64,000 nt of DNA from Candidatus Aquidulcis sp. (GCA_020723345.1 DYJA01000002.1:137544-201543); one strand, 5' to 3'; positions 8,743 to 57,218 are shown, counted from the stretch's first letter. A program made the numbers and translations. Notes: generated by a model not told the origin, from the sequence alone.

Positions 8743-8744
8743 CT

Positions 8745-9008: not shown

Positions 9009-9116
9009 TTCCACACCGATTTTGCGCGCTCTGCGCGAAGGTTTACGGTCTTCATCAGACGACGAAGACACGCCCCTCTAAATCCGCACGTCTAATCCTG
9101 ATTTCCAGGAGGATTC

Positions 9117-9362: not shown

Positions 9363-9368
9363 GTACCC

Positions 9369-10963: not shown

Positions 10964-12361
10964 ATGTCAACACCACGCGACTATTCCAAATTGACGAACG
11001 AACTTGCCGCCGAGTACGCGCGGCATTCCCCAAAGTCCGCCGCGCTGAACGAACGCGCGCTGCAAACGATGATCGACGGCGGCAGCCACTCACTCCGCTT
11101 GATCAAACCATTCCCGCCGCGCCTGGTCAGCGCGCGCGGCGCGTACGTGCAAGACGCCGACGGACACACGATTCTTGATTTCTGGCAGGGGCATTACGCG
11201 AACGTGCTGGGACACAATCCCGATGTGATCACCTCCGCACTTGCGCGCGCGTTTGAATCCGGCTTTGGCTTGCAGACCGGCTTTACCGACGAACTGCAAG
11301 TCCAAGTCGCCGAAATTCTCTGCAAGCAAACCGGCGCGGAACGTGTGCGCTTTACGACGAGCGGCGCGCTCGCGACGATGAACGCGATCATGCTCGCGCG
11401 CGCGTTCACCGGACGCGAACTCGTGATGAAAGTCGGCGGTGGGTGGCACGGCGCGCAACCCTGGGGCTTGATCGGCGTGAGTTTTATGAGCGGCGCGGAG
11501 CCGTGGCGCGCCGAAAGCGCGGGCTTGCCCGACGCGCTCGCGCGTGAGGTCGTCGTCACGCGCTACAACCATCCCGAAATGCTGCGCGAACATTTCAAGC
11601 AGCACGGCAATCGCCTCGCGTGCTTCATCGTCGAGCCGTTCATGGGCGCGGGCGGGTTTATGCCAGCGACCGGCGACTATCTGCAAACCGCGCGCGAGTT
11701 GTGCAATCAGTACGGCGTCGTCCTGATTCTCGACGAAGTGATCAGCGGCTTTCGTTTCCGCGCCGGTAATCTCGGCGCGCTGTACGGCGTCCAGCCGGAC
11801 TTGACGACACTCGCCAAAGTGATCGGCGGCGGAATGCCGGTCGCGGCGGTCGCGGGACGCGCGGACATTATGAAATTGTGCGGACGCGACGGCGGCAACA
11901 AGGTGCGTTTTCCCGGCGGCACGTATTCGGGACATCCGGCGTCTCTGCTCGCGGCAAAAACTCTGCTGACGTACTTGGTTGAGCACGAGAGCGAAGTGTA
12001 CCCGCGTCTCGCGCAACTCGGCGCGCAAACGCGCCAGGCGATTGAAGACGCGTTCGCGGCGGAAGGAATTTTCGCGCGCTGCACCGGGCATCCCAACGAT
12101 GCCGTGCGTGGCAGTTCGCTCGCGGTGCCGCAATTCCCGTACGACGAAAAACAAGCGCTGCTCGATCCTGACGACGTGAATGATCCCGCGAAATGCGACG
12201 TCGAACTGCGCGATCATCTTTTCCAACTCGCGCTCTTGCTCGAAGATGTCCACGTCGTTCACGGCGGCGGCGCGCTCAGCACCATGCACACGGAACAAGA
12301 CATCGCGCGATTAGGCGAGGCGTGTCGGCGCGTCGCGCGGCGCGTCAAGAAATCCATGTAG
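10964..12361 (+). CDS. Class-III aminotransferase (glutamate-1-semialdehyde aminomutase-like)
   Basis: 465 aa. FTTSGALATMNAIMLARAFTG, LILDEVISGFRF, DLTTLAKVIGGGMP (PLP lysine). Confidence 0.9.
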   Translation: MSTPRDYSKLTNELAAEYARHSPKSAALNERALQTMIDGGSHSLRLIKPFPPRLVSARGAYVQDADGHTILDFWQGHYANVLGHNPDVITSALARAFESGFGLQTGFTDELQVQVAEILCKQTGAERVRFTTSGALATMNAIMLARAFTGRELVMKVGGGWHGAQPWGLIGVSFMSGAEPWRAESAGLPDALAREVVVTRYNHPEMLREHFKQHGNRLACFIVEPFMGAGGFMPATGDYLQTARELCNQYGVVLILDEVISGFRFRAGNLGALYGVQPDLTTLAKVIGGGMPVAAVAGRADIMKLCGRDGGNKVRFPGGTYSGHPASLLAAKTLLTYLVEHESEVYPRLAQLGAQTRQAIEDAFAAEGIFARCTGHPNDAVRGSSLAVPQFPYDEKQALLDPDDVNDPAKCDVELRDHLFQLALLLEDVHVVHGGGALSTMHTEQDIARLGEACRRVARRVKKSM

Positions 12362-32232: not shown

Positions 32233-32261
32233 GACAATAGAAGGAAATTGAATAACAAAAA

Positions 32262-32468
32262 CCGCGGGGGAGAATTCCAAGTTGGCTCAAAAAAAACTTG
32301 GATACCGAAGGGGCAAGCCAGATAGTTGCCAAACCGTTTGGCGAATCTCTCAGGTCACGGGACCCCGCAGAAATTTTCTCTGGAAAGTTGGACCCGCTGT
32401 AGCGTCCAACGCCGATGGGGCAAGCCGCGCGGATTTACGGCGAATCTCTCAGGCGATCCAACAGAGAA
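32262..32468 (+). promoter_or_regulatory. Tandem glycine riboswitch (two aptamers)
   Basis: Aptamer 1: GGGGGAGAA...ACCGAAGGGGCAA...AATCTCTCAGGtcacGGGACcccgc. Aptamer 2: CTCTGGAaAG...GCCGAtGGGGCAA...AATCTCTCAGGCgatccaACAGAG. Both match the class consensus cores and sit upstream of the glycine-cleavage genes. Confidence 0.9.
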
Positions 32469-38743: not shown

Positions 38744-40105
38744 ATGACCCATCGTTTCATTCCCAACACCGATGCCGATCGCGCTGCAATGCTACAGACG
38801 ATCGGCGTTGCGTCGGCGAAAGACTTGTTCGCGGACGTGCCGCAGGACGCGCTCTATCCAAAAATCAAACTGCCGAGCGCGTTATCCGAACTTGACTTGA
38901 TGCGCGAACTGCAAACGATGTCGGCGCGCAACGCGAACGTCAACGAACGCGCGTGTTTTCTCGGCGCGGGCGCGTACAACCATTTCATTCCCGCGACGAT
39001 TCCGCATCTCGTTTTCCGCAGCGAGTTTTACACCGCGTACACGCCGTACCAAGCCGAAATCAGCCAGGGCACGCTGCAAACGATTTTCGAGTACCAGTCG
39101 ATGATCTGCGCGCTGACCGGCATGGACGCGGCGAATGCGTCGCACTATGATGGCGCGACGGCGGCGGCGGAAGCCGCGATCCTCGCGATCAATCAATTGC
39201 CCGGACGAAACAAGATTCTCGTGTGTCCGACTTTGCACCCGGAATATCGCGCGACGATTCGCACGTACCTCGCCGGGCACGATATTGAAATTGTCGGCGA
39301 CGAAGACACAAGCGCGACGTTCGAGCAAATGGTGGACAAACATCTCGACGATCGGACCGCGTGCGTGATCGTCGCAAATCCCGACTTTTTGGGACGCGTG
39401 CGCGACTTGAAGCCGTACGCGGATCGCGTGCACGCGGCAGGCGCGCTTTTCGTCGTCAGCGCGTACCCGATTTCGCTTGGCTTGTACCAAGCGCCGGGAA
39501 ATTATGGCGCGGATGTCGTCGTCGGCGAAGGACAATCGCTTGGCAATCCAATCGCGTTCGGTGGACCGTACCTGGGAATTTTCGCGACGAAAGAAAAATT
39601 CTTGCGGCGCATGGCGGGACGCTTGGTCGGACAAGCGACGGACACGAAGGGGCGGCGCGGTTTCACGCTGACGTTGCAGGCGCGCGAGCAGCACATCCGC
39701 CGCGAAAAAGCGACGTCGAATATTTGCACGAATCAGGCGCTATGCGCGCTCGCTGCGTGCGTGTATCTTTCGACGCTCGGCAAGTCGGGCTTGCGCCAAG
39801 TCGCCGAGTTGTGCTATCACAAAGCGCACTACGCCGCGAACAAGATCAATCGGCTCGTTGGCTATCGCGTGAATATGAAGCAAGAATTCTTCAACGAGTT
39901 TGTCGTCGAGTGCCCGCGCCCGGTCGCGGAGATCAACGCGGCGTTGCGCGAGCGAGGAATTATTGGCGGATACGATCTATCGAAAGATTATCCGCATCTT
40001 GGGAATGCGATGTTGGTTGCGGTAACAGAGATGAACACGCGAGAACAAATTGACGCGTTTGCAAAAGCGTTGGGAGAAGAGATAAGAAGGCGGAAGAAGG
40101 GATAA
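38744..40105 (+). CDS. gcvPA: Glycine dehydrogenase (decarboxylating) subunit 1
   Basis: 453 aa. FLGAGAYNH, YTPYQAEISQGTLQ, SHYDGATA. The final codons RRRKKG-stop lie inside the following repeat. Confidence 0.95.
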   Translation: MTHRFIPNTDADRAAMLQTIGVASAKDLFADVPQDALYPKIKLPSALSELDLMRELQTMSARNANVNERACFLGAGAYNHFIPATIPHLVFRSEFYTAYTPYQAEISQGTLQTIFEYQSMICALTGMDAANASHYDGATAAAEAAILAINQLPGRNKILVCPTLHPEYRATIRTYLAGHDIEIVGDEDTSATFEQMVDKHLDDRTACVIVANPDFLGRVRDLKPYADRVHAAGALFVVSAYPISLGLYQAPGNYGADVVVGEGQSLGNPIAFGGPYLGIFATKEKFLRRMAGRLVGQATDTKGRRGFTLTLQAREQHIRREKATSNICTNQALCALAACVYLSTLGKSGLRQVAELCYHKAHYAANKINRLVGYRVNMKQEFFNEFVVECPRPVAEINAALRERGIIGGYDLSKDYPHLGNAMLVAVTEMNTREQIDAFAKALGEEIRRRKKG

Positions 40106-40200
40106 GAAGACATAGAAGGGATAGAAGGCAGAAGAAGGCGTAGAAGGCGAAAGAAGGCGCGCTGACCTCTTGCCCTCTTCGCCCTCTTAGCCCTTCTGAG
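40081..40200. repeat. Long imperfect palindrome of gataagaagg/gcagaaggc units
   Basis: gataagaaggcggaagaagggataagaagacatagaagggatagaaggcagaagaaggcgtagaaggcgaaagaaggcg ... cctcttgccctcttcgccctcttagcccttctg. Same family as 14884 and 58596. Confidence 0.8.
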
Positions 40201-40209
40201 GAGCAGGCC

Positions 40210-41664
40210 ATGACAATCGTTGCAAATAAACCAGAACCGATCATTTACGAATTAAGTTCGCCGGGACGACAAGGCGCGGCGTTGCCGAGTTGCGACGTCC
40301 CGATTGCCCGATTGCCCGATCACCTGATGCGCGACGAACTCAAACTGCCCGAAGTTTCCGAAGTGGATGTTGTGCGACACTTCACGCGTCTCTCGCAGAA
40401 AAATTATTGCGTCGATCTCGGCATCTATCCGCTTGGTTCGTGTACGATGAAGTACAATCCCAAGATCAATGAAGAAGCGGTGAAACTGTCGGGCTTTACT
40501 GCTGTGCATCCGTACCAAAGCGCGGACGAAATTCAAGGCGCGCTGCAACTGATGTACGAGTTGCAGGAAATGCTCGGTGAGATCTGCGGCTTGCCCGGCG
40601 TCACGCTGCAACCGGCGGCGGGCGCGCAAGGCGAACTTGCGGGTATCCTCATTATTCACGCGTACCACAAAGCGCGCAAAGACACGAAACGCAAAAAAGT
40701 GATCGTGCCCGATTCCGCGCACGGCACCAATCCGGCGACTTCTTCGATGAGCGGCTACCAAGTTGTGCAGGTCAAGTCCGACGCGCGCGGCAATGTCGAT
40801 CTGGATGAGCTGCGTAAACTCGCGGACGACGAAACGGTCGGTTTGATGCTGACAAATCCGAACACGCTCGGCTTGTTCGAGGAGAATATTCGCGCGGTGT
40901 GCCAGATCATCCACGACGCGGGCGGCTTGGTGTACGGCGACGGCGCGAACTTGAACGCGATTGTCGGCGTCGCGCGACCGGGTGATTTGGGGATCGATAT
41001 TTTGCACAGCAACTTGCACAAGACGTTCAGCGTGCCACACGGTGGCGGCGGTCCCGGCGCGGGCGCGGTGATGGTACGCCAAGACCTCGCGCGATTCTTG
41101 CCGGGTCCAATTGTCGCGAAACGCGGGAAACGGTACGAATTCGCGATGCCGCGCAAATCAATCGGGCGCGTGAAATCGTTCTACGGCAATTTCCTCGCGC
41201 TCGTGCGCGCGTACGTCTACATTCGCTCGTTCGGCAAAGAGCATCTGCACGAAATCGCCGAGGACGCGGTGATCAACGCGAATTACTTGCTCGCGCGTTT
41301 GAAGGGCGTGTACGCCGCGCCGTTTGGCAACCGCGTTTGCAAGCACGAGTTCGTGTTGACCGGGACGCCGTTCGCGGAAAAGTACGGCGTGCACACGCTC
41401 GACATCGCGAAACGGATTCAGGATTACGGTTTCTATCCGCCGACGATTTACTTTCCGCTCACCGTGCCCGAGTGCATTATGATCGAGCCGACGGAAACGG
41501 AATCAAAGAAAAGTCTTGATGAATTTGCAGACGCGCTTCTAAAAATCGCAGAGGAAGCGCGCACGAATCCGCAATTGCTGCACGACGCGCCGACGACTGC
41601 GCCCGTGACGCGGCTGGACGACGTGAAAGCTGCGCGCGCGCCGGTGTTGTGTTATAAGGGCTAG
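40210..41664 (+). CDS. gcvPB: Glycine dehydrogenase (decarboxylating) subunit 2
   Basis: 484 aa. LGSCTMKYNP, PDSAHGTNPA, HSNLHKTFSVPHGGGGPG (PLP Lys). Confidence 0.95.
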   Translation: MTIVANKPEPIIYELSSPGRQGAALPSCDVPIARLPDHLMRDELKLPEVSEVDVVRHFTRLSQKNYCVDLGIYPLGSCTMKYNPKINEEAVKLSGFTAVHPYQSADEIQGALQLMYELQEMLGEICGLPGVTLQPAAGAQGELAGILIIHAYHKARKDTKRKKVIVPDSAHGTNPATSSMSGYQVVQVKSDARGNVDLDELRKLADDETVGLMLTNPNTLGLFEENIRAVCQIIHDAGGLVYGDGANLNAIVGVARPGDLGIDILHSNLHKTFSVPHGGGGPGAGAVMVRQDLARFLPGPIVAKRGKRYEFAMPRKSIGRVKSFYGNFLALVRAYVYIRSFGKEHLHEIAEDAVINANYLLARLKGVYAAPFGNRVCKHEFVLTGTPFAEKYGVHTLDIAKRIQDYGFYPPTIYFPLTVPECIMIEPTETESKKSLDEFADALLKIAEEARTNPQLLHDAPTTAPVTRLDDVKAARAPVLCYKG

Positions 41665-41786: not shown

Positions 41787-44000
41787 CTATCTCGTGGCGC
41801 AACGGAATCCCACGGTGGAGAGCTTGAGTTCTGGTGTACCCCAAGCGCGGTATGCACTGCGCGTGAGCAGCTTGCTAGCCTGCCACGATCCACCACGTAG
41901 AACACGACTGTCACCCGACGAAGGCCCTGTTGGGTTACTCTTTGGAGAAACAGGATAATAGTCGATGCTATACCTATCTGCGACCCATTCAAACACATTC
42001 CCAGCCATATCCATTACGCCATACGGGCTTACTCCGGTTGAGAAACTTCCCACAGCCGTAGTGTCTCCTGGTCCATTTTCGATAAAGTTCAGTTTGCTTG
42101 GATCAAAAGCATCCCCCCATGGATAGATTCTGCCATCAGATCCACGAGCAGCCTTCTCCCACTCAGCTTCGGTCGGCAAGCGTTTACCGGCCCACTCGCA
42201 AAATGACCTCGCATCGTTCCACGATACCCAGATTACCGGATAATCATCAAACTGAGTATTCCCATAATAAGAATTCCGTGTGTTCGATCTACTTAGCCAA
42301 GGGATGGAACACTTGCCACTGTCCACGCATTTCCTGTACTGCACATTTGTCACCAAGAACTTTTCTATCCAATATGCGTCTAGGTACGGTGTGTGTGGAG
42401 GCTTCTCGTTATCCCAACCGTCATTGCTTCCCATCGTAAATTCTCCGGCAGGGACGAACATCATTGGCGCATTGCCAATCACACGCTCTTCGCCAGATCT
42501 TGGCGTAGGTGGAGGCAATTCTCGAGCTGCTATAGTTCCAATTGCTTGAGCCGTTGCAAGCAAATTCAGCGTAGGAGTACCGGGTAATGGTGGACTAAAT
42601 GTTAGTCGATTTTCGGGAGAGGGCTGTGGTTTGGGAGTCGGATTTTGAGCCACCGATGTCTGATAGGCAGCACTCCATTCCACGGCATCCTGTGCCAGTC
42701 TCGTTGATTTTGCACTCACATCAAGTGCATAAATCACAAGCGCCATCACGATGAAAAAAAGTACCAAACCAGCGACAAGCCCAATTCTGGCTAACCTTCT
42801 CGAACGTGCAAAGCGCCATTCCTCATTGGATATCTGAATTGAATGGATAAATCGATCGTGTGTAAGCTCATACCAACGCGCACCCGCGCGCAATTCCGCT
42901 CGGATGAGGTGTTGGTTTTCCAATACATCCACGGCAGCATTGGGAATTCCTTCGGTTCGTTCTTTGCCACGGAACACTGTTCCACGGGTATCCGCCGGTG
43001 TAACAAGATGCCGTTCGAACCAATTGCGCAAGTCTCTCTCACCAACTCGCGTTTCTTTTGCCGTCGTTTTAACTGCACGTTCGTAAAAACCCTTCAGTGC
43101 TTCACCTACATTGCCGAAAGCTTTGAGGTGATCAATTGTAATAATCTTTGTATCCGGCGGCAGATCAATCCAGAGGTTCTGACAGATGACTTGCAATTGT
43201 ACTGGTTCGACAAACTCACCCGTCGCTTCTATTATCTCACCCCGCGCACTCTCTACTTTGATCTTTAGCAATTCCTGTACCAATTCATGGGCAACCCCTG
43301 ATGCAAACGAGCGTCCTACGCTTATTACTGGCCGTTCGACAGCTAACGTTGCTGGCTCGGCACGCAACAACTCTAGACGAAAACGGTTACGCAATTGGTC
43401 AGGCATAGCGCGGGCATATGGATCCAAGCTAGCCAGACAATCCTCACGCATTACGAACAGTACGCGCAACAATGGATCCGCCTCGAGTGCCCCAGCTACC
43501 TGATGAAAGAACCCTTCTCTTTCCCTCCAGCGCTCTGGATAGAAAGCAAATAGTTCCTCAAACTGATCAAAGATGATGACGCGCGGCAAAGGTAGCCCTT
43601 GCCGATCCGTTGGATGAGCGCGCTCTCTTAGAAAAGCTGAAATGGATAAGGAACCTAGCAAGATTGACTCCGGTCTATCCTCCAGCCAACTCATCAAAGT
43701 ATTGACGACATAGATATTCATTGTCTCGCGGACATCTGATCCTTCGCGAACGAGTCCGCGCATACGCGCCACTGGCAAGACCTCGAACCCTTCAGCTCGG
43801 AGTGCAGGAATAAGGCCGGCATTCAACAACGACGTTTTACCTGCGCCTGATTGAGCGTAGATAAGCACAACCCGATGGGCCGTGACGAGAGAGGCCAGCT
43901 CTAATATCTCGCGATCACGCCCGAAGAACAAATTCTGCTCGTTTGATTCGAATGGACGCGGACCAGGGTAGGGGATGCGGAAATTGGGTTCAGCGCTCAT
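41787..44000 (-). CDS. STAND-like P-loop NTPase, single TM helix, Pro-rich linker and FGE-sulfatase (SUMF1-fold) domain lacking the catalytic cysteines
   Basis: YPGPRPFESNEQNLFFGRDRE, Walker A YAQSGAGKTSLLNAGLIPAL, Walker B RVIIFDQFEELF, FVMREDCLASLD. TM IGLVAGLVLFFIVMALVIYAL preceded by RFARSRRLAR. C-terminal WVSWNDARSFCEWAGKRLPTEAEWEKAARG, GNVFEWVADRY, RVLRGGSWQASKLLTRSAYRAW, GFRCA. Confidence 0.85.
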   Translation of the reverse strand: MSAEPNFRIPYPGPRPFESNEQNLFFGRDREILELASLVTAHRVVLIYAQSGAGKTSLLNAGLIPALRAEGFEVLPVARMRGLVREGSDVRETMNIYVVNTLMSWLEDRPESILLGSLSISAFLRERAHPTDRQGLPLPRVIIFDQFEELFAFYPERWREREGFFHQVAGALEADPLLRVLFVMREDCLASLDPYARAMPDQLRNRFRLELLRAEPATLAVERPVISVGRSFASGVAHELVQELLKIKVESARGEIIEATGEFVEPVQLQVICQNLWIDLPPDTKIITIDHLKAFGNVGEALKGFYERAVKTTAKETRVGERDLRNWFERHLVTPADTRGTVFRGKERTEGIPNAAVDVLENQHLIRAELRAGARWYELTHDRFIHSIQISNEEWRFARSRRLARIGLVAGLVLFFIVMALVIYALDVSAKSTRLAQDAVEWSAAYQTSVAQNPTPKPQPSPENRLTFSPPLPGTPTLNLLATAQAIGTIAARELPPPTPRSGEERVIGNAPMMFVPAGEFTMGSNDGWDNEKPPHTPYLDAYWIEKFLVTNVQYRKCVDSGKCSIPWLSRSNTRNSYYGNTQFDDYPVIWVSWNDARSFCEWAGKRLPTEAEWEKAARGSDGRIYPWGDAFDPSKLNFIENGPGDTTAVGSFSTGVSPYGVMDMAGNVFEWVADRYSIDYYPVSPKSNPTGPSSGDSRVLRGGSWQASKLLTRSAYRAWGTPELKLSTVGFRCATR

Positions 44001-44878
44001 TTCCCAAGCCCTTCCCAGCGGTCAAACAACTCGGCGGTGAATTCCTTCGCAGTACCCCAATACACGCGGACATTAATCCCCCCAAAGTAATCCGTCAAGT
44101 ATTTCTGTGCGCTTTTCCCTTCTGCCACACTACTGGGCGGTAACTGAACGGCAACACTGATTCGGCGCAAGCTCGATTCCATTGATGTAACCAGACCACG
44201 GAACAGGACTCGAAAATCCCAATCAGCCAAACGATATCCGATGAAAAGCAATGAAGCTCCAGTAAGTGCCTCCTGGATGCGTGGGGGAAGTAAGTTGTGA
44301 TCCTTGGAAATACTTACTAGAAAATCGAGATAGTCATCCTCGGTGAGAACGAGAGATTCAGGAACCTCGTTGTGTCCATGCAGGTGGTAGACAACAGGAT
44401 TGGCGGGAGTAGGACGAAAACCAACGACGGAGTCGAAAACAGATGGACGACCTCTAAGGAAACTATTCCAACAACATAGCTCACGGCGAGGGTCTCTGTG
44501 CTGACTAACAAGTGCCCGAACCATAAAGTCATCGTAATTGGTTGTCATGTAGATCGGAAGCGGGAGCTTGGCAAGTATTGTATGTGGCTCGTCAGACGCA
44601 GCGAAATCAGGTAACCCGATATTCTTAAATGACCCAAGGAGTTGTTCCTTCGGGAACATTGAATCGTGGGTAGAGACAGCAAGAAACTGAGCGACACGTG
44701 CGAGATCGGAAGAATCTTCAAGGGGGTACTTGTATTGCCTGGCCCATTTTTGAGCAATCTCTGAACCAAGAGGAAGAACACCATAGGCAACACCAGCTCC
44801 CAGGAAGGGAGTGCATTTACCTTGTTGAATTCTTGCCAGCAGAATTTGCCAATCCTGTTCGCTCAAGGTTTCGGCCAT
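43997..44878 (-). CDS. SIR2-like (SIR2_2-type) protein, candidate NAD-consuming effector
   Basis: CTPFLGAGVAYG, IYMTTNYDDFMVRAL, VVYHLHGH, LVLTEDDYLDFL, SLLFIGYRLADWDFRVLFRGL. GGAGG RBS. ATGA overlap with the downstream NTPase gene. Confidence 0.85.
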   Translation of the reverse strand: MAETLSEQDWQILLARIQQGKCTPFLGAGVAYGVLPLGSEIAQKWARQYKYPLEDSSDLARVAQFLAVSTHDSMFPKEQLLGSFKNIGLPDFAASDEPHTILAKLPLPIYMTTNYDDFMVRALVSQHRDPRRELCCWNSFLRGRPSVFDSVVGFRPTPANPVVYHLHGHNEVPESLVLTEDDYLDFLVSISKDHNLLPPRIQEALTGASLLFIGYRLADWDFRVLFRGLVTSMESSLRRISVAVQLPPSSVAEGKSAQKYLTDYFGGINVRVYWGTAKEFTAELFDRWEGLGK

Positions 44879-48378: not shown

Positions 48379-48488
48379 CGCAAGAAACGCAAGGGACACA
48401 GATGAACGCAGATGAACACAGATCAAACTAGAAATCATTGTTCTTGTTTTCTTCGTGTTCATCGCGCCTTTCGTGGACAGAGTTCTTA

Positions 48489-49085: not shown

Positions 49086-49115
49086 TTGACAACCGCCCGC
49101 CTTCTGCAATACAAT
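49086..49115 (+). promoter_or_regulatory. Promoter candidate for the NTPase-WD40/SIR2 operon
   Basis: TTGACA, 18-nt spacer, TACAAT; about 40 nt before GTG 49158. Confidence 0.45.
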
Positions 49116-49157: not shown

Positions 49158-51917
49158 GTGAATGATTCCCCAAATCCGCACGTCCCAGATTGTCCCTACG
49201 TCGGCTTGCAACCATACTCCGAAGCCGAACGCGAATACTTTTTCGGTCGCGAGCAAGACACCGAAACGATTGCCGCGAACTTGCTCACCGCGCCGCTGAC
49301 GTTGCTTTACGGCGCGAGCGGCGTCGGCAAAACGTCCGTGCTTGCGGCAGGCGTTGTGCCGTACTTGCGCGCGATGCCTGATGTACTTGTTGTTTTGTTT
49401 CGGCAGTGGCAGGACAGCACGTTTCAAGATGTGCTGATGAACGACGTTGATACAACGGTCTACTACTCAAGAGCCAAACTGCTGAGTAATAGGACACCGC
49501 TTCCGTTCGACGAATTCCTCGCGCGCGCGGCGCAAGAAACCAACCGCACGCTCCTCATCATCCTTGATCAGTTTGAAGAGTATTTTCTCTATCACCCTAA
49601 CGGAAATCCGTTCGAGGAGCAACTCGCGCGTGCGATCAATAGGGGCGACGTGAACGCAAATTTCATTCTCTCCATGCGCGAGGACGCGCTCTCACAACTC
49701 GACCGCTTTGAAACACGGATTCCCAACTTGATGAGCAACTATTTGCGCTTGGAGCATTTGGACCGCGCTGGTGCAGGGCGCGCGATTCGCAAGCCGCTGG
49801 ATGTGTACAACGCGCGCCGAACTGACGCGTCCCCGATAACGATCGAAGACGCGCTGGTGGATGCGTTGATTGAGCAAGTTCGCACGGGACGCGTGACGCT
49901 GGGGCGCGCAGGGCAAGGCGAAATTGCCGTAATGCAATCCGCCGACACGCGCGATACGCGCATTGAGGCGCCCTTTCTGCAAATGGTCTTGACTCGTCTC
50001 TGGGAGGAAGAAACTCGTGCCGGCGCGCGCAACCTTAGACTTGCAACCTTGAACCTCCTTGGTGGCGCTGAAAAAATCGTGCGAACGCATCTGGACGAAG
50101 TAATGAACAGATTGCGCGCGCCGGAGCAAGAAGTTTGCTCCACCTTCTTCGACCGATTGGTCACGCCGTCGGGCACCAAGATCGCGCAGAACGCCGACGA
50201 CCTGGTGACGTATGCTGCGCGTTCCGCTGCTCAAGTCACTCCCATTCTCAAGAAACTTGCCGACGCGCGCGTCCTGCGTCCGATTGCGCCGCCGCTGAAT
50301 CAGCCCCAGGTCGCGCGCTATGAGATTTTTCACGATGTGATTGCGCCTGCGATTCTGGATTGGCGCAGACGTTTCGTTGATCGCAAGCGCGTTCGTCGCT
50401 TGGGATTGATTACGCTGGGGGCTGTTTTGCTCGTGGTGGTGTTCAGTTTGTTGTCGCTCTTTGCGTTCCAGCAAATGTTGAATGCGCAGGATGCCGAGGG
50501 GCGCGCGATTGTTCAACGCAACGCAGCGGCTACTTCGGAAGCGCGTGCGGTAACGCAGGAAGCGAGCGCATACCAGCAACGCGCCGAAGCGCAGAATCAG
50601 GCAAACGCGCGGGCTACGGCGGAAGCGCAGGCATTGGTTCAACGTGATGCGGCAGAGAAATCCAAGGGTGAAGCGCTCACTCAACAAAAGATCGCCTTTT
50701 CGCGTGAATTGGCGGGGATAGCGCTCGCGCGATTGCCTGTTGACCCAGAACAAAGTCTGCTCTTGGCTCTCCATGCCGCCGAGATTTCTCCGACTGAACA
50801 GGCAGAGGACGCCTTGCGCCAATCATTGCGCGGGTATGCTTTGCGTGCTGCATTGCGCGGGCACACTGCTAGTGTGTATGCTGGATTCAGCCCGGACGGC
50901 AAATTCATCGTCACGGCAAGTCTAGACAATACGGCGCGTGTGTGGGAGACGAGCACAGGCAAGAGTATCGTTGAACTGCGTGGGCACACCGGTCAGGTGC
51001 GAAGCGCCCAATTTAGTCCCGACGGCAAATTCATTGTCACGGCGAGTCAAGATGGAACCGCGCGGGTTTGGGAGGCGAGTACCGGTAAAAGTATCGCCGA
51101 ACTGCGTGGACATACTGCGACCGTGCGCCATGCCGTGTTCAGCCCGGATGGCAAGTTCGTCGTCACAGGAAGCAATGACTACACAGCGCGCATTTGGGAA
51201 GCCAGCACAGGCAAGAACATCCGGGAACTGCGTTGGCACGGGAGTTCTTTGAGCGGCGTGGCATACAGTCCCGACGGCAAATCTATTGTTACGGTGAGCT
51301 CAGGCGCGGGCGCGCGGATTTGGGAAGCGAGTACAGGCAGAGGTATCTCGGAACTACGCGGGCACACGAAATCCATAAATAGCGTCGCGTTTAGTCCCGA
51401 CGGCAAATTTATTGTCACCGCGAGTTCGGACAATACGGCGCGCGTGTGGGAAACAAGCACAGGCAGGAATATTGCGGAATTGCAGGGGCACACGGATGTC
51501 GTACGAAGCGCGACATTCAGTCCTGATGGCATGTTCGTCGTCACTGGCAGTTCGGATAACACAGCGCACGTGTGGGAGGCAAGCACAGGCAAGAGTATTA
51601 TGGAATTGCGCGGACATACGGGGTACGTGACTATTGCCGCATTTAGTCCGGATGGCAAGTTCATCGTGACAGTCAGTAGAGATGGAACCGCGCGGGTGTG
51701 GGAGGCAAGCACAGGGAGAGGCATCGCGGAACTACGCGGACACACCACTGAAATCAATAGTGTTGAATTCAGTCCCGATAGTAAATTCATTCTCACCGGG
51801 AGCGCTGATTTTACCGCGCGGCTATGGGAGGCGAATAGCCGCGACAGTATTATAGTATTCCTTCGCAGAAACTATCACGACCGCGAAGATTCTTGGGACA
51901 CAGATGAACACAGATAA
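49158..51917 (+). CDS. STAND-like P-loop NTPase, single TM helix, Ala/Gln-rich coiled coil and 8 WD40 repeats
   Basis: CPYVGLQPYSEAEREYFFGREQD, Walker A YGASGVGKTSVLAAGVVPYL, Walker B LLIILDQFEEYF, ILSMREDALSQLD. RRRFVDRKRVRR then TM LGLITLGAVLLVVVFSLLSLFAF. Eight LRGHT...FSPDGK...TARVWE units. The ORF terminates inside a hairpin repeat. Confidence 0.85.
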   Translation: MNDSPNPHVPDCPYVGLQPYSEAEREYFFGREQDTETIAANLLTAPLTLLYGASGVGKTSVLAAGVVPYLRAMPDVLVVLFRQWQDSTFQDVLMNDVDTTVYYSRAKLLSNRTPLPFDEFLARAAQETNRTLLIILDQFEEYFLYHPNGNPFEEQLARAINRGDVNANFILSMREDALSQLDRFETRIPNLMSNYLRLEHLDRAGAGRAIRKPLDVYNARRTDASPITIEDALVDALIEQVRTGRVTLGRAGQGEIAVMQSADTRDTRIEAPFLQMVLTRLWEEETRAGARNLRLATLNLLGGAEKIVRTHLDEVMNRLRAPEQEVCSTFFDRLVTPSGTKIAQNADDLVTYAARSAAQVTPILKKLADARVLRPIAPPLNQPQVARYEIFHDVIAPAILDWRRRFVDRKRVRRLGLITLGAVLLVVVFSLLSLFAFQQMLNAQDAEGRAIVQRNAAATSEARAVTQEASAYQQRAEAQNQANARATAEAQALVQRDAAEKSKGEALTQQKIAFSRELAGIALARLPVDPEQSLLLALHAAEISPTEQAEDALRQSLRGYALRAALRGHTASVYAGFSPDGKFIVTASLDNTARVWETSTGKSIVELRGHTGQVRSAQFSPDGKFIVTASQDGTARVWEASTGKSIAELRGHTATVRHAVFSPDGKFVVTGSNDYTARIWEASTGKNIRELRWHGSSLSGVAYSPDGKSIVTVSSGAGARIWEASTGRGISELRGHTKSINSVAFSPDGKFIVTASSDNTARVWETSTGRNIAELQGHTDVVRSATFSPDGMFVVTGSSDNTAHVWEASTGKSIMELRGHTGYVTIAAFSPDGKFIVTVSRDGTARVWEASTGRGIAELRGHTTEINSVEFSPDSKFILTGSADFTARLWEANSRDSIIVFLRRNYHDREDSWDTDEHR

Positions 51918-52850
51918 ACACAGATAGAAAAATCAGTGTTCATCAGTGTTTATCAGTGTCCAAAAGATTTGGTTGCGGCTATGCTGCGCTATGGATCTGC
52001 GCGGACATACAAGTAAGATCCGGAGCATCGTGTTCAGCCCAGATGGAAAATCTCTCGTGACCGCAAGCGAGGACAACACCGCCCGAGTATGGGAAGCAAG
52101 CACAGGCGCGAGTATCCTTGTATTGAGTGGGCATAAGGGTTTCTTGCGGAGTGTTGCCTACAGTCCCGAGGGCAAGTTCATCGTCACCGCGAGTGGAGAT
52201 TCGATAGCGCGGGTGTGGGAGGCGAGTACAGGTAAGAGTATCCTGGAACTGCGCGGACACACAAAAGATGTTCGCAGCGCCGCGTATAGCCCCGATGGCA
52301 AGTTCATCGTCACCGCAAGCATAGATGGGAGTGCGCGCGTGTGGGAGGCAGGCACAGGTAAGGGAATCATGGAATTGCGGGGGCACGGTATCCATAGCGT
52401 CCTCAACGCCGCGTTCAGTCCGGATGGCAAGCGCATCGTCACGGCGGGCTGGGATGGCATCGCGAAGGTGTGGGAGACAAGTACAGGCAAGAGCACAATC
52501 GAATTGCGCGGACATACACTAGGTTTATACAGCGCCACATTCAGTCCGGATGGCAAGTTGATTGTTACTACCAGTGTGGACGGAACTGTACGGATATGGG
52601 AAGCCAGCACAGGCAAGAGCGTCATCGAATTGCACGCGCACGCAGGTGATTCGCACAGCGCCGCATTCAGTCCTGATGGGAAATATGTCGTCACTGTAGG
52701 TTTGGACGGAAACGCGAGGGTATGGGAGACTAGCACCGGCAAACACATCGTCGAAATATCTGAGGCGACTGCCATATTCAGCGCCGTCTTCCATCCCGAA
52801 GGCAAGTTAATCGCGACTGCAAGTAGCGATGGCGTTGCGCGCATTTACGT
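50853..52850 (+). repeat. Tandem 126-bp (42-codon) WD40 coding repeats, 15-16 units across two ORFs
   Basis: Units LRGHTxxVxSxxFSPDGKFIVTASxDxTARVWEASTGKSIxE are highly similar at the DNA level. Differences cluster just after GHT and around S-x-D-x-T. Confidence 0.85.
51896..51961. repeat. Hairpin of cacagat units interrupting the WD40 array
   Basis: ggacacagatgaacacagataaacacagatag-aaaaa-tcagtgttcatcagtgtttatcagtgtcc. Near-identical core to 57152-57218. Confidence 0.85.
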
Positions 52851-53028
52851 CTGTGAGGTGTGTGCTCCATTCCAAGACCTTATCGCGCTTGCACGCACGC
52901 GCATCACGCGCGAGTTCATGTGCGAAGAGCGGCAAAGGTATTTGCACGAAAATATTGTCTGCTCAACGCCAACGCCAATCCTAACTCAAACTCCAGAGCC
53001 CCCGCAGACAATAACGCCTGGTAGGTGA
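51946..53028 (+). CDS. WD40-repeat protein (7 repeats), probably the detached C-terminal part of the preceding gene
   Basis: The first ATG lies inside the hairpin. The recognisable sequence starts DLRGHTSKIRSIVFSPDGK. No signal peptide or TM. An alternative start is ATG 51991. Confidence 0.7.
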   Translation: MFISVQKIWLRLCCAMDLRGHTSKIRSIVFSPDGKSLVTASEDNTARVWEASTGASILVLSGHKGFLRSVAYSPEGKFIVTASGDSIARVWEASTGKSILELRGHTKDVRSAAYSPDGKFIVTASIDGSARVWEAGTGKGIMELRGHGIHSVLNAAFSPDGKRIVTAGWDGIAKVWETSTGKSTIELRGHTLGLYSATFSPDGKLIVTTSVDGTVRIWEASTGKSVIELHAHAGDSHSAAFSPDGKYVVTVGLDGNARVWETSTGKHIVEISEATAIFSAVFHPEGKLIATASSDGVARIYVCEVCAPFQDLIALARTRITREFMCEERQRYLHENIVCSTPTPILTQTPEPPQTITPGR

Positions 53029-53032
53029 TCTT

Positions 53033-53980
53033 ATGCCCGAACCACCTTATGGTATCATTGTCAACCAATTGAAACAAGGGAACGTCATTCCCTTCCTCGG
53101 CGCGGGCGCGTCGTTGAGCGGACGTCCGGTGGACGCGAAATGGAACGACAAGACCGCCGCGTTTCTTCCAACCGGCAGAGAACTCGCGCACCAACTCGCC
53201 GAGGATTCCAGTTTGCCGTCCACAGAATCGTACGACCGCGATGATCTCTCCAAAGTTTCGTCGTACTACGCCGAAGTCGCCGCAAACCGCGCCGACTTGA
53301 TCGGCTGTCTGCATCAAACGCTTGACCGCGATTATCAGATCGGCGCGATCCACCGTTTTCTCGCAGACGCCGACGTGCCGCTTCTCATCGTCACGACGAA
53401 TTACGATGATCTGATCGAGCGCGCGTTTCAGGCAAAGGGTAAACCGTACCATCTCGTCGCGTATCCCACCGATCACAAAGAACTCGCGGCAGCGGTATTG
53501 TGGTGGAAGCCCGGCGCAGCCGACCCCGAAGCGCACGCGCCCAAATCGCTTCCGCTCTCGCTCAGCGATACGACCATCATCTACAAGATGCACGGCACGG
53601 TGGATCGGCAAGCGAACAAGTGGGATTCGTACGTCATCACCGAAGAAGACTATGTGGACTTTCTCGCGCGGATGACGGGGCAGACCGCGATCCCCGCGCG
53701 CTTGATGCTCGAATTTCGCAAGCGGCGTTTTCTCTTTCTCGGCTACGGTCTGCGCGATTGGAACCTGCGCGTGATGCTGCGTCACCTCAAAAGCGCACTC
53801 GCCACAACCGAAACGACCGCGCCGCTAACCGATGCGGGCGAGGATTTGCGCTCGTGGGCGATCCAGCGCAATCCATCGGAGTTGGAACGCGCGCTGTGGC
53901 TTGCGCGCAAGGTGAACATTTACGATCTGGAGATTGACGCGTTCGTCGGCAAGTTGCGCGAGAAGATGGGCATTGCGTAG
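53033..53980 (+). CDS. SIR2-like (SIR2_2-type) protein, paralogue of 43997-44878
   Basis: VIPFLGAGASLSG, LLIVTTNYDDLIERAF, IIYKMHGT, YVITEEDYVDFL, RFLFLGYGLRDWNLRVMLRHL. Starts 4 nt after the WD40 stop. Confidence 0.85.
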   Translation: MPEPPYGIIVNQLKQGNVIPFLGAGASLSGRPVDAKWNDKTAAFLPTGRELAHQLAEDSSLPSTESYDRDDLSKVSSYYAEVAANRADLIGCLHQTLDRDYQIGAIHRFLADADVPLLIVTTNYDDLIERAFQAKGKPYHLVAYPTDHKELAAAVLWWKPGAADPEAHAPKSLPLSLSDTTIIYKMHGTVDRQANKWDSYVITEEDYVDFLARMTGQTAIPARLMLEFRKRRFLFLGYGLRDWNLRVMLRHLKSALATTETTAPLTDAGEDLRSWAIQRNPSELERALWLARKVNIYDLEIDAFVGKLREKMGIA

Positions 53981-54079
53981 GGGCGAAGCATTTGCCAAAT
54001 CGTGATCGCATGCCAAGACGATTGGCATAATGCAAACAACTTGCCGACAAACCGTCTTGCGCAAATGCTTCGCCCTTAC
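53978..54079. repeat. GTAGGGGCGAAGCATTTGCC...GCAAATGCTTCGCCCTTAC element
   Basis: Same termini and same orientation as 48945-49084. Its TAG is the stop codon of the SIR2-like gene. Confidence 0.8.
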
Positions 54080-54096
54080 GCGGCACGGGGCAGCGT

Positions 54097-54125
54097 TTGA
54101 CCAATCCCCCAACCTGTGCTATAAA
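54097..54125 (+). promoter_or_regulatory. Promoter candidate for the aspS leader
   Basis: TTGACC, 17-nt spacer, TATAAA. Confidence 0.5.
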
Positions 54126-54131
54126 CCACGC

Positions 54132-54452
54132 AACGCAGTGACGGAGAAACGTAGCGCTTGACGAGATTCCAGAGAGCCGTACAATTCTGAAAAGCCGGCA
54201 TCCACGCAAGCGTGATGAACATCTCCCGAGCGTTTCGGTCCGCTCCCGTTATCGAGCGTCGAGGCGACAACCCGCCGAATGTAATTCGGCGTCTCAAAAT
54301 CTGAAAATCGGCTAGAAGCCGATTGCGCGCCAACCCGATTGATCGGGGTTCCACCTTTTGAGACGGACGATTGCATCGTCCGTTGTCGCGCAGAAAGGTG
54401 GCACACGAGTCCCCCCTCGTCCTTTCATCGGACGCGGGGGAATTTTATTTCA
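54132..54452 (+). promoter_or_regulatory. Probable T-box leader (tRNA-sensing riboswitch) of aspS
   Basis: AGAGAG bulge-like motif near the 5' end and several stem-loops. T-box-like gaaaGGTGGCACacgag (54394-54410), where gaaa/tttc and acgag/ctcgt can form an antiterminator with a UGGC-containing bulge. Competing terminator tcccccctcgtcc-tttcatc-ggacgcggggga followed by attttattt. Specifier codon not identified. Confidence 0.5.
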
Positions 54453-54547
54453 GGCGATCAGGCGACCACGTAATCCGGCGATCAGGCAATCGGGCGATCG
54501 GCAACCGATTGACCGATTGCCTGATTGACCGATCCCTGATTGCCTGC
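54452..54547. repeat. Tandem-motif palindrome (caggcgatc / gattgcctg units) between the leader terminator and the aspS start
   Basis: caggcgatcaggcgaccacgtaatccggcgatcaggcaatcgggcgatcggcaa / ccgattgaccgattgcctgattgaccgatccctgattgcctg. Confidence 0.75.
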
Positions 54548-54560
54548 CGAAGGAGCCACT

Positions 54561-55862
54561 ATGGAACGAATTCGCACAACGCAATTGCGCGAACACATCG
54601 GTCAGCGCGTCATTTTGCGCGGCTGGATGCACAACCTGCGCGCGCTCGGCAAGATCAGTTTCATTCTCGTGCGCGACGGCTACGGCATCGCGCAAGCGGT
54701 TACCCAAGACGAAAACGTGCTTGCCGCGCTCCACGGCGCGCACGACGAAAGCGTCATCGAACTCGAAGGCGCGGTCGTCGCGGAAGCGCAAGCGCCGGGC
54801 GGCGTCGAATTGCGCGACATCGCGGTGCGCGTCATCGCGCCGGTCACCGACACGCCCCCGTTTCCGCTCAACAAGCCGACCGTCAACGCGACGCTCGACG
54901 TTTTTCTCGATCATTCGACGGTCGCGCTGCGTCATCCGCGCAAGCGCGCGCTGCTGCGACTTTCCGCCGGGATCATGTCGGCGTTTCGCGAATTTCTCAA
55001 CGGCGACGGATTCACCGAAATCCAATCGCCCAAACTTGTCGCGTCGGCGACCGAAAGCGGCGCGAATGTGTTCGCGGTCGATTACTTTGGCAAAAAGGCG
55101 TTTCTCGCGCAGTCGCCGCAGTTCTACAAGCAAATTATGGTCGGCGTGTTCGAGCGCGTGTACGAAGTCGGTCCCGTCTTCCGCGCCGAGCCGCACGACA
55201 CGACGCGCCACGTCAACGAGTACGTCAGTCTCGACGTCGAATTTGGTTTCATCGAGAATCACTTTACGGTGATGGCGTTGCTCACGCGCTTGATTCGACA
55301 CATTCTCGCGCGGCTCGCGGAACAAAACGCGGCAGCGTTGCAATTGCTCGATGTGAAAATGCCGAACGCGCCTGAAACTTTCCCACACATTCACTTTCGC
55401 GACGCGCAGCAACTCATCTTTGAGAAATTCGGCGAGGATTGCCGCGGCGAACCCGATCTCGCGCCGCAGCACGAACGCTGGCTCGGACAGTGGGCGCGTG
55501 AAACGCACAACTCCGATTTTCTATTCGTGCCCGGCTATCCGATGAGCAAGCGACCGTTTTACACGCACCCCGATCCCGCGGATCCAAAATATTCGTACTC
55601 GTTCGACTTGCTGTTTCGCGGCACCGAACTTGTGACCGGCGGACAGCGGCTGCATCGGTACGAAGATTATCTTGCCGCGCTCGCGCGCGCGAAATATCCG
55701 GTCGAGCCGTTCGCGTACTATCTCGACGCGATGAAGTACGGGATGCCGCCGCACGGCGGCTTCGCCGTCGGCTTGGAACGTTTTGTGATGCAGTTGTGCG
55801 GCTTGTCGAATTTGCGCGAAGCGACCTTGTTCCCGCGCGATACGCACCGCCTCACCCCATAA
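54561..55862 (+). CDS. aspS: Aspartate--tRNA ligase, short (archaeal/type-2) form
   Basis: About 433 aa. GWMHNLRALGKISFILVRDGYG, FLAQSPQFYKQ, VGPVFRAEPHDTTRHVNEY, GGQRLHRYE, GMPPHGGFAVGLERF. AAGGAG RBS before MERIRT. Confidence 0.95.
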   Translation: MERIRTTQLREHIGQRVILRGWMHNLRALGKISFILVRDGYGIAQAVTQDENVLAALHGAHDESVIELEGAVVAEAQAPGGVELRDIAVRVIAPVTDTPPFPLNKPTVNATLDVFLDHSTVALRHPRKRALLRLSAGIMSAFREFLNGDGFTEIQSPKLVASATESGANVFAVDYFGKKAFLAQSPQFYKQIMVGVFERVYEVGPVFRAEPHDTTRHVNEYVSLDVEFGFIENHFTVMALLTRLIRHILARLAEQNAAALQLLDVKMPNAPETFPHIHFRDAQQLIFEKFGEDCRGEPDLAPQHERWLGQWARETHNSDFLFVPGYPMSKRPFYTHPDPADPKYSYSFDLLFRGTELVTGGQRLHRYEDYLAALARAKYPVEPFAYYLDAMKYGMPPHGGFAVGLERFVMQLCGLSNLREATLFPRDTHRLTP

Positions 55863-55895
55863 AAAATTAGGAGCGAGCAACTGCTCGCTCCTTTC

Positions 55896-57110
55896 TCATT
55901 CCCACTTGCGCTCGTCCACGATTGGCTTGGCGTCCGCCGCAATCGTCCCTGCTGGCGCGAATTCGATCTGGTCCACGCTCACGCGAATCAACCCGCGCAC
56001 CGCTTCGGAAAATTCCTGGCTTAATTTCGCGCGATCGGGCACGTCCTGCGCGAGTTCGACTTTGAGCGTCAAATGGTCGCGCACATTGTCCGGACGCGTG
56101 ACGATGCCCTGCACGCGCGCGATCGCCGGAAACTGCGCGAGCGCGAACTTGATCTGATTCGGATGAACGAACATCCCGCGCACTTTGACCGCGTCGCCGA
56201 CGCGCCCGACGAGCATGATGCGCTCGCGCGTCTCGTCGGTACACACTGCCATATCGCCGGTGCCGAGGCGAATGAGGGGGTACGTTTCGTTGAACGTCGT
56301 GACGACGACTTCGCCTGGCTCGCGCGCGCCGACGCGTTTGCCGGTCGCGGGGTCGACAATTTCGACGACGATGCCCTCCGCGATTTGCAGCGCGCGCTTG
56401 GTTTCATCGTCGTACGCGAGAAAGCCGAGTTCCGCCGTTGCGTATACGTTCGTCGTCTTTAATCCGTACACACCTTCGAATTGCGCGCGTAGCGAGGGCG
56501 GATATGGCTCGGCGGTGAAAAGCGTGTGGCGCAGCGCGAATTGCTTTTTGAAATCGAGGCGCATCTCCTCCGCTTTTTTGATGATCGTCATCAAAAAACT
56601 TGGCGTGCCCGCATAGCCGGTCACTTTGAGATCGAGCATCATCTTGATTTGCAATTCGGTGTTGCCGACGCCGCTGGGGATGACGGTCGCGCCGACTGCT
56701 TGCAATCCGGCGTCGAGCAGCAAGCCCGCCGGGACGAGGTGGTACGACAGCGTGTTGAGCGCGATGTCGCCGCGCGTGAAACCCGCGATGCGAAAAATGC
56801 GCGCCGCCGTTCTGACGAGCGATTTCTCCGCGCCGTGTGGTTCGTACAGCGGACCCGGCGAAAGAAAAATATGCTTGAGCCGTTTCGCCTTTTCGCTGCG
56901 AAACCCGCCGAACGGCGGCGCGGCTTTTTGCAGTTCGACGAGGCGATCCTTGCTCGTCACCGGCACGCGTTCCAAATCCGCGACGCGTCGAATGTCGCGC
57001 GGTTTCACGCCCGCGTCGTCGAAAATCCTTTTGACGGCGGGCGCGCTCGCGTACGCGTGTTTGACGAATTTGGCAAGTTCCCGATCGAGCGAGTTAGGTT
57101 GGGTGGGCAT
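55896..57110 (-). CDS. Phenylacetate-CoA ligase family (PaaK / F390-synthetase-like) adenylating enzyme
   Basis: 404 aa. VPVTSKDRLVE, YAGTPSFLM, TAELGFLAY, RLGTGD. Confidence 0.85.
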   Translation of the reverse strand: MPTQPNSLDRELAKFVKHAYASAPAVKRIFDDAGVKPRDIRRVADLERVPVTSKDRLVELQKAAPPFGGFRSEKAKRLKHIFLSPGPLYEPHGAEKSLVRTAARIFRIAGFTRGDIALNTLSYHLVPAGLLLDAGLQAVGATVIPSGVGNTELQIKMMLDLKVTGYAGTPSFLMTIIKKAEEMRLDFKKQFALRHTLFTAEPYPPSLRAQFEGVYGLKTTNVYATAELGFLAYDDETKRALQIAEGIVVEIVDPATGKRVGAREPGEVVVTTFNETYPLIRLGTGDMAVCTDETRERIMLVGRVGDAVKVRGMFVHPNQIKFALAQFPAIARVQGIVTRPDNVRDHLTLKVELAQDVPDRAKLSQEFSEAVRGLIRVSVDQIEFAPAGTIAADAKPIVDERKWE

Positions 57111-57151
57111 AGATCACTCCTTGAAGACAAGTCAAATAGAAATCGGATAAT

Positions 57152-57218
57152 GGGACACCGATGTACACAGATAAACACAGATAGAAAAATCAGTGTGCAT
57201 CAGTGTTTATCCGTGTCC
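57152..57218. repeat. Hairpin of cacagat units (second copy)
   Basis: gggacaccgatgtacacagataaacacagatag-aaaaa-tcagtgtgcatcagtgtttatccgtgtcc. Contains the stop and last 3 codons of gene 57207-57770. Confidence 0.85.

Follow-up and report, generated by a model that had tools for sequence, protein, structure and literature searches.

What is encoded by a stretch of DNA in which a membrane-spanning NTPase with a WD40 array, a further WD40 open reading frame (ORF) and a SIR2-like gene follow one another on the same strand, and how many genes does it hold? The region occupies positions 49158-53980 of a 64,000-nt stretch of Candidatus Aquidulcis sp. DNA (GCA_020723345.1, DYJA01000002.1:137544-201543), which was analysed as a whole and is called the window here. 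An earlier note, made from the sequence alone, had presented it as copy 2 of a module whose copy 1 (41787-44878) lies ~4 kb away on the minus strand; the three ORFs of copy 2 and every motif quoted for them are present in the translations. We consider it probable, at roughly 0.7, that the region is a member of a family of self-contained two-gene conflict (immune-type) modules, made up of a membrane STAND sensor and a SIR2 effector. Judged against its relatives, 49158-53028 is a single gene cut after repeat 8, of which the two WD40 ORFs are the halves.

The 919-aa product of the first ORF contains an nSTAND1 NTPase (Pfam PF20703; E = 1.1e-44, 154 bits against a gathering cutoff of 27.1 bits), and nSTAND3 is absent among the 25 best of its 57 Pfam matches. 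It carries the motifs YFFGREQD, GVGKTS, LIILDQFEEYF and MREDALSQLD, with intact Walker A (GxxxxGK[ST]) and Walker B (hhhhD(Q)FEE) sequences, and residues G52/G55/G57/K58, D137/Q138/F139/E140 and R174 are invariant in 45 NTPase homologues. The AlphaFold2 (AF2) model of the NTPase, made with these 45 homologues (predicted local distance difference test, pLDDT, 87.3), comprises a P-loop nucleotide-binding domain, a helical domain and a winged helix. Foldseek matches it to Orc1/Cdc6 (3e-10), archaeal SSO1545-type ATPases, ZAR1, Apaf-1 and NRC3, with low template-modelling scores (TM-scores) of 0.3-0.5; a PDB sequence search with the NTPase gave no significant match, and NCBIfam holds no model for either core protein (NTPase, SIR2). 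As the earlier note had proposed, a single hydrophobic segment follows the basic run RRRFVDRKRVRR, and one unbroken helix predicted by AF2 over aa 393-525 takes in both this transmembrane (TM) segment and the alanine/glutamine-rich (A/Q-rich) stretch behind it. The N-terminus of the sensor, VNDSPNPHVPDCPYVGLQPY, is kept in the relatives L003 and L007.

The SIR2-like gene begins, as also noted earlier, 4 nt after the WD40 stop codon, and its SIR2_2 motifs are intact. SIR2_2 (PF13289; E = 2.6e-27, 96 bits against a cutoff of 24.5) is the only domain found in its 315-aa product, which PADLOC recognises as a ThsA-type SIR2 (3.5e-20) and in which G23-A24-G25, N123 and H187 are invariant across 14 SIR2 homologues. 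A PDB profile search returned KomC (8.7e-14), ThsA (4e-12) and DSR2; in the KomC alignment, the H187 stretch pairs with KomC residues ~146, and a KomC H146N mutant has been deposited (PDB: 9xvc). The AF2 model, of moderate confidence (pLDDT 72), likewise found KomBC (1.5e-11; TM-score 0.64/0.72), KomC, ThsA and DSR2 in Foldseek, as well as EfAvs5 (9jap_A, 2.5e-08). The SIR2s of KomC, ThsA, DSR2 and Avs5 are NAD+-depleting defence enzymes. From its sequence and model, the 315-aa protein appears to be a stand-alone SIR2_2 enzyme of this ThsA/KomC/DSR2/Avs5 class, with predicted NADase activity. Helical assemblies are found among the solved matches (KomC/KomBC, BcThsA and EfAvs5), and EfAvs5 is reportedly activated by filamentation (PMC11897194).

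The pairing of these two proteins reaches far beyond the window. A SIR2 profile recovered relatives in 339 of 185,579 species-representative genomes, a pattern-limited and therefore lower-bound count, and the best 80 loci were examined, using a hidden Markov model (HMM) built from NTPase domains to detect nSTAND1 neighbours. These loci span more than eight phyla (Chloroflexota, Acidobacteriota, Verrucomicrobiota, Desulfuromonadales/Geobacter, Bacteroidota, Planctomycetota, Gemmatimonadota and others), the family being frequent in Acidobacteriota, Chloroflexota, Verrucomicrobiota and Desulfuromonadales. All 80 have an adjacent nSTAND1 gene on the same strand, usually 0-20 nt away or overlapping by 4 nt, and at all of them, as in the window, SIR2 and NTPase are separate genes. 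The two proteins co-evolve: over 79 pairs, SIR2 and NTPase distances correlate with r = 0.84, a value reached in 0 of 999 Mantel permutations, and the loci nearest to copy 2 are identical for both proteins (L009, L010 and L011). The order of the genes, described in the earlier note as opposite to that of copy 1, is indeed the unusual one, with SIR2 preceding the NTPase in 77 of the 80 loci; NTPase before SIR2 is confined to three of them, the Anaerolineae loci nearest the window, and is also seen in L002, L003 and L093. By this distribution, it is a derived rearrangement within one Anaerolineae subclade. On sequence comparison, the whole would constitute a widespread and seemingly undescribed two-gene module, with a logic like that of Avs5 but split in two genes and membrane-spanning.

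An all-versus-all BLAST of 1602 flanking ORFs revealed no third conserved gene, the best cluster being lineage-specific and present at 14 of 80 loci. A ~1300-aa protein of unknown function is a recurrent, lineage-specific neighbour at L034 (3034-6924) and eight other Pyrinomonadaceae loci, and a neighbour whose N-terminus looks clostripain/C11-like by eye occurs at L046 (5531-6982) and six other loci (five from Geobacter/Deltaproteobacteria, one from Anaerolinea). In the close relative L007 (Anaerolineales UBA4826), the WD40 and SIR2 genes are separated by a gene (9275-9934) for a 219-aa protein whose N-terminus is signal/lipobox-like (…LPILMSSCQT) and which includes a Pro/Thr-rich region.

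Copy 1, comprising an nSTAND1-TM protein whose tail is an FGE-sulfatase and a SIR2_2 of its own (Pfam), shares both components with copy 2: pairwise alignment gave 28% identity over 460 aa for the NTPase cores (E = 9e-24) and 25% for the SIR2 proteins (E = 2e-21). The homology of both parts, together with the 80/80 synteny, is the reverse of what the earlier note had said would speak against a common sensor-NTPase plus SIR2 logic. Its term "copy", however, is misleading, as the modules are old paralogues of different subfamilies with separate nearest relatives, and there was no within-genome duplication; a recent duplication is ruled out by the 25-28% identity and by those separate relatives. 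For copy 1, the nearest is the second tandem pair at the Pyrinomonadaceae locus L021 (12261-14943; SIR2 46% and NTPase 50% identical). The host-like composition ascribed to copy 2, unlike copy 1, was borne out by G+C content at third codon positions (GC3), which is 0.72 for the copy-2 SIR2, 0.70-0.76 for the housekeeping neighbours and 0.46 for copy 1, with the nuance that the copy-2 NTPase-WD40 gene stands at 0.61. By composition, copy 2 thus looks resident, and copy 1, given its low GC3, was probably acquired horizontally and recently.

Two divergent SIR2-nSTAND1 pairs stand in tandem at five loci (L014, L021, L060, L068 and L077), in several Acidobacteriota genomes; such tandem divergent pairs resemble the two modules of the window.

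The TM helix after the NTPase is a property of the family, being found in 68 of 78 full-length homologues. Among 61 single-TM members, the 15 residues on the N-terminal side of the helix contain on average 5.72 lysines and arginines versus 2.95 on the C-terminal side, with the N-terminal flank richer in 59 of the 61 and never poorer (p = 1.8e-11). This positive-inside bias agrees with the earlier prediction for copy 2, and we regard an N-in/C-out topology of the sensor as likely. The region behind the helix is subject to domain swapping: among 73 NTPase homologues it holds WD40 in 34, TPR in ~12 and pYEATS in 7, and HEAT, FGE or unknown domains in others. The FGE-sulfatase domain of copy 1 is akin to periplasmic PvdO/GldK and also to cytoplasmic EgtB. 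Pairing with SIR2 persists through these exchanges in all three members that were looked up (P0169, P0232 and P0123).

These properties suggest a route of activation. Gene A would encode a cytoplasmic nSTAND1 NTPase joined, through a single TM helix and a helical stalk, to a variable domain for ligand binding. In copy 2, this domain would originally have been formed from ~15-16 WD40 blades, lying most probably on the membrane's outer side. A ligand bound to the sensor would relieve autoinhibition across the membrane, and the NTPase would exchange or hydrolyse nucleotide and oligomerise, in an ATP-dependent manner, beneath it. The oligomer would in turn assemble and activate the co-translated SIR2, whose hydrolysis of NAD+ would lead to cell arrest or death.

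More tentatively, and at somewhat less than even odds, the family as a whole may represent an outside-in immune receptor that combines an NLR-type STAND engine with a Toll-like-receptor-type topology and an extracytoplasmic, diversifying sensor (WD40, TPR, pYEATS, PASTA or FGE). Such a receptor could respond to surface cues, the candidates being adsorption proteins of phages, fragments of peptidoglycan or neighbouring cells; a single helix would carry the signal inwards, and NAD+ would be depleted before foreign DNA or protein reaches the cytoplasm. To our knowledge, all characterised bacterial STAND/NLR-like immune sensors (Avs, bNACHT and Avs5) work in the cytosol and recognise phage proteins once these have entered the cell. 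If the outside-in reading is true, the NLR engine also serves bacterial envelope surveillance, and the pair offers a clean two-protein model of a STAND protein recruiting a non-fused effector. The module is testable, since an intact SIR2 and nSTAND1-TM pair (P0132) is present in the cultured Geobacter hydrogenophilus DSM 13691 (L049; NZ_JAHCZI010000009.1, 6989-9821). The 165-aa tail of P0132 matches in length the pYEATS of sister Geobacter loci such as L037.

In copy 2 itself, the sensor gene is interrupted. Pfam finds WD40 in seven matched stretches of the 919-aa ORF, which our own parse resolves into the eight repeats counted in the earlier note, each of 42 aa or 126 nt; the 360-aa ORF at 51946-53028 contains WD40 only (Pfam), and here too the earlier count of seven repeats stood, although its reading as a detached component did not. 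A TGGGA(G/A) landmark recurs every 126 nt (50943, 51069 … 51825, then 52090, 52216 …), and the sole irregular step, from 51825 to 52090, equals 126 + 139 nt. The two ORFs lie in different frames with the inserted DNA between them: the extra 139 nt shift the frame by +1, so that the first ORF runs for 27 codons into unrelated sequence and ends at 51917 with a 27-aa out-of-register tail, and the second continues in another frame.

The junction DNA (fold z = -3.85) contains an 11-nt inverted repeat of 10/11 complementarity (ATAGCCGCGAC at 51835-51845 and GTTGCGGCTAT at 51972-51982), within which a near-perfect palindrome is nested. The pattern of this palindrome, GGGACAC[A/C]GATG.ACACAGATAAACACAGATAG…GTGTCC, is also found in intergenic DNA at 57152-57218 and, in degenerate form, from 48393 (48393-48480); an 18-mer search of the window gave nine matches in these three places, against 0.02 expected by chance. 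The element did not resolve into a clean miniature inverted-repeat transposable element with terminal inverted repeats and a target-site duplication. GCGGCTATG is present at 51819 and 51975, which by arithmetic gives no clean target-site duplication; the other two copies share the core palindrome only. Over its first ~36 nt, the extra DNA bears a weak resemblance to the strand-d coding sequence expected there (~50% nucleotide identity, by eye), leaving the boundaries of the insertion ambiguous. An Rfam search of 48-58 kb at the gathering threshold found no known RNA or ribozyme match. The ratios of nonsynonymous to synonymous substitution (dN/dS), measured against two relatives, are low for the SIR2 (0.07) and for the NTPase domain (0.12-0.16); with no relaxation or decay of either, the insertion is probably recent.

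Could the cut instead be a deliberate split into a membrane sensor and a separate soluble WD40 partner, both functional? Its position exactly between repeats 8 and 9 would suit such a design, as would the low dN/dS of the flanking genes and an in-frame ATG (51991) directly 5' of LRGHT in the second ORF, the first in a frame whose listed start, GTG 51946, lies within the palindrome. Yet the relatives with 90% identical SIR2 (L002/L003; at 175-3894 in L003) possess one continuous gene of 1223-1239 aa, composed of nSTAND1, TM helix, A/Q-rich helix and ~16 WD40 repeats, with the SIR2 gene 4 nt downstream; its end, …TRELTCEERQKYLRENIVCPTP…PGR*, is the tail of the second ORF in the window, and the L007 tail aligns as well. 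The extra 139 nt and the frameshift at the junction, the dispersal of the same palindrome in intergenic DNA and the count of 0/80 loci with a conserved separate WD40 gene all argue in the same direction. An independent, detached WD40 gene was rejected on account of the intact orthologues and the broken 126-nt register, and a purposeful division of the sensor is improbable. We give still less weight to a repeat-induced assembly artefact. Dispersed palindromes and WD40 arrays do make assembly difficult, the Logan contig L001 (run SRR13164373) ends at the palindrome, and a similar apparent break in the NTPase of UBA4826 (L007) turned out to be a scaffold gap of merely 4 Ns. WD40 repeats of the same type nevertheless stand on either side of the junction, in the same orientation and the expected order, with the ancestral tail on the right, a pattern that a chimeric join is unlikely to give. 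The right-hand junction, moreover, is matched exactly by this independent assembly: L001 is identical to window 51966-57194 and ends inside two palindromes, as expected of a dispersed repeat. By comparison with the intact relatives, the copy-2 sensor is accordingly cut down to an NTPase-TM-8-blade protein and an orphan 7-blade fragment; 49158-53028 is best annotated as one interrupted gene, and copy 2 as a damaged example of its family.

Several observations weigh against an immune module or its outward-facing sensor. With its sensor being broken, copy 2 may be inactive. A defence-island setting in the window was rejected, as the neighbours are housekeeping genes (glycine cleavage P-protein subunits, acyltransferase, DAG-kinase-like, GNAT, Asx-tRNA synthetase and AMP-binding enzyme). 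PADLOC has no model for the NTPase, its sole match being weak (mads8, E = 1e-4). No close relatives were found on plasmids with the NTPase domain as query, only distant nSTAND1 proteins fused to caspase, trypsin or WD40, nor on viral contigs with the SIR2 as query, where three matches were weak and partial. We found no paper linking the SIR2-nSTAND1 pair to phage defence or NADase activity, and detected no adaptor domain shared by SIR2 and NTPase. FHA domains, normally cytoplasmic, follow the helix in P0169, P0225 and P0235 (L092); WD40, TPR and HEAT domains are mostly cytoplasmic too; and P0123 (L093), of the same subclade and with a 75% identical NTPase, is a soluble variant with HEAT repeats and no TM helix. 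Together with the cytoplasmic WD40, TPR and HEAT sensors of characterised STANDs (PMC12803255), these last points would fit a sensor that is itself cytoplasmic and that, like Avs, detects intracellular phage proteins, the helix being a membrane tether or a membrane-damaging effector freed on oligomerisation. A single-pass helix, however, places its flanking domains on opposite sides of the membrane, and the requirement for ATP and NAD+ confines NTPase and SIR2 to the cytoplasm; the charge bias points to N-in for 59 of 61 proteins. PASTA follows the helix in P0232 (L091), whose upstream gene belongs to the same SIR2 family (HMM 4e-78), an Ig-like, Pro/Thr-rich and Cys-containing tail does so in P0125, and the kinase domains of two variants lie N-terminal to their TM helices. 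We therefore regard a cytoplasmic sensor as unlikely, though not far-fetched. Somewhat less likely again is a housekeeping role in signalling, for example one that links the state of envelope or peptidoglycan to the NAD-dependent deacylation or ADP-ribosylation of proteins. The housekeeping neighbourhood, the place beside the Asx-tRNA synthetase gene (a synteny with the SIR2 gene common to the window and L002), the host-like codon usage and strong purifying selection of the SIR2, and the PASTA variant, suggestive of muropeptide sensing, would be in keeping with it. Against it, the SIR2 has only defence NADases (KomC, ThsA, DSR2 and Avs5) as its nearest relatives, whether by sequence or by fold, the spread over more than eight phyla is patchy, the composition of copy 1 is foreign, and tandem paralogous pairs with rampant sensor swapping are hallmarks of conflict systems.

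Among known systems, the conflict module that we favour most resembles Avs5 (AVAST type 5; PaAvs5 and EfAvs5), which likewise unites a PF13289-type SIR2 NADase, a repeat sensor and an nSTAND-group NTPase, and in which oligomerisation or filamentation switches the effector on (PMC12931631, PMC11897194). In Avs5, SIR2, nSTAND3 and TPR are parts of a single fused protein (PMC12931631), with the SIR2 at the N-terminus of one cytosolic polypeptide, nSTAND3 (PF20720) as NTPase and TPR, Sel1 or PPR as sensors. The separate SIR2 gene, the nSTAND1 family of the NTPase and the TM helix between NTPase and sensor place the module outside Avs5 despite the similar logic. Kaur et al. (2021, eLife, PMC8195603) defined nSTAND1 itself as an NTPase of conflict systems, and nSTAND1-FGE/CLec proteins have been noted as targets of diversity-generating retroelements (Doré et al. 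2023, bioRxiv 2023.09.22.558884). The nSTAND1 conflict systems share with the module their NTPase family, variable C-terminal sensors (WD40, TPR, and FGE-sulfatase as in copy 1) and a predicted counter-invader role; their effectors, however, act through fused or EAD-adaptor domains (caspase, trypsin, TIR) rather than as a stand-alone SIR2_2. No description of such a partner, or of a conserved NTPase-TM-sensor layout, was found in the nSTAND1 literature. A wider literature search also gave no account of a membrane-spanning nSTAND1 partnered by a stand-alone SIR2; the supplementary tables of the 2026 STAND census (PMC12803255) lay outside its reach and may list the clade.

KomC (Kongming), ThsA (Thoeris) and DSR2 are the closest relatives of the SIR2 in sequence and fold, keeping the Rossmann GAGxS and the catalytic Asn and His. 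KomC is triggered by deoxyinosine triphosphate (dITP) made by KomA/KomB, ThsA by glycocyclic ADP-ribose (gcADPR) through its SLOG domain and a TIR partner, and DSR2 binds the phage tail tube by its own C-terminal domain. Such partners and domains are all absent here, the invariant partner being the nSTAND1 protein. In particular, the protein is without the C-terminal SLOG of ThsA and has no recurrent neighbour besides nSTAND1 (so no ThsB/TIR partner), and the KomA/KomB (HAM1) operon of Kongming is absent, with an Asx-tRNA synthetase gene and the WD40 gene as neighbours.

The WD40 array has a further parallel. Within its 42-aa unit, variation concentrates at the hypervariable positions 6, 7, 9, 25, 27 and 41 (copy-2 array, window 50850-52850), and identity between repeats is higher within an array (0.61 in the window, 0.53 in L003) than between orthologous arrays (0.48). 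This combination suggests homogenisation by concerted evolution together with diversification at the binding face. Fungal HET-E/NWD-type NLRs carry tandem, near-identical 42-aa WD40 repeats with variation at few positions, and they are likewise STAND proteins with a conserved array; unlike the present family, they are cytosolic, use NACHT or NB-ARC, have fused effectors and lack both a TM helix and a SIR2 partner.

The features of the region are collected in Table 1. A promoter-like site lies 5' of the GTG start, and none was seen on the plus strand between the WD40 ORFs and the SIR2 gene, an arrangement compatible with co-transcription as far as a consensus match can indicate. The palindrome, for its part, may terminate transcription and so reduce expression of the SIR2.

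Table 1. Positions of sensor, insertion and effector features in the window (copy 2)
Feature	Position	Strand	Details
Sigma-70-like promoter candidate, TTGACA-18-TACAAT	49086..49115	+	11/12 consensus match only; 43 nt upstream of GTG start
5' part of interrupted sensor gene, 919 aa	49158..51917	+	nSTAND1, TM helix, A/Q-rich helix, helical linker, WD40 repeats 1-8
nSTAND1 NTPase module, aa 13-395	49194..50342	+	Pfam PF20703; Walker A GASGVGKTS, Walker B LIILDQFEE, MRED motif, winged helix
Predicted single transmembrane helix, aa 417-435	50406..50462	+	19-mer LITLGAVLLVVVFSLLSLF, after basic RRRFVDRKRVRR; Kyte-Doolittle mean 2.77
Predicted Ala/Gln-rich helical stalk, aa 436-525	50463..50732	+	From sequence; continuous helix in AF2, pLDDT 49-68 at aa 470-510
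WD40 repeats 1-8	50850..51833	+	Exact 126-nt period
Disrupted inter-repeat junction	51834..51996	+	163 nt versus 24 nt expected; net +139 nt, +1 frameshift
Core palindrome, 67 nt, near-perfect	51895..51961	.	GGGACACAGATGAACACAGATAAACACAGATAG...CAGTGTTTATCAGTGTCC; nested inside the 11-nt inverted repeat
3' part of interrupted sensor gene	51997..53028	+	WD40 repeats 9-15 and ancestral C-terminal tail …TREFMCEERQRYLHENIVC…PGR*
SIR2_2 effector gene, 315 aa	53033..53980	+	GAGAS (23-27), TTNYDD (N123), KMHG (H187); starts 4 nt after WD40 stop

Between the SIR2 and Asx-tRNA synthetase genes, L002, the closest relative, carries HicA/HicB and DUF4160/DUF2442 toxin-antitoxin-like pairs (11036-12271), which the corresponding interval of the window (53980-54540) is without. 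Elsewhere in the window there are two tRNA genes (8515-8742), and the glycine-cleavage P-protein genes at 38744-41664 are preceded, at a distance of several kb, by a glycine riboswitch aptamer (32257-32375, 59 bits).

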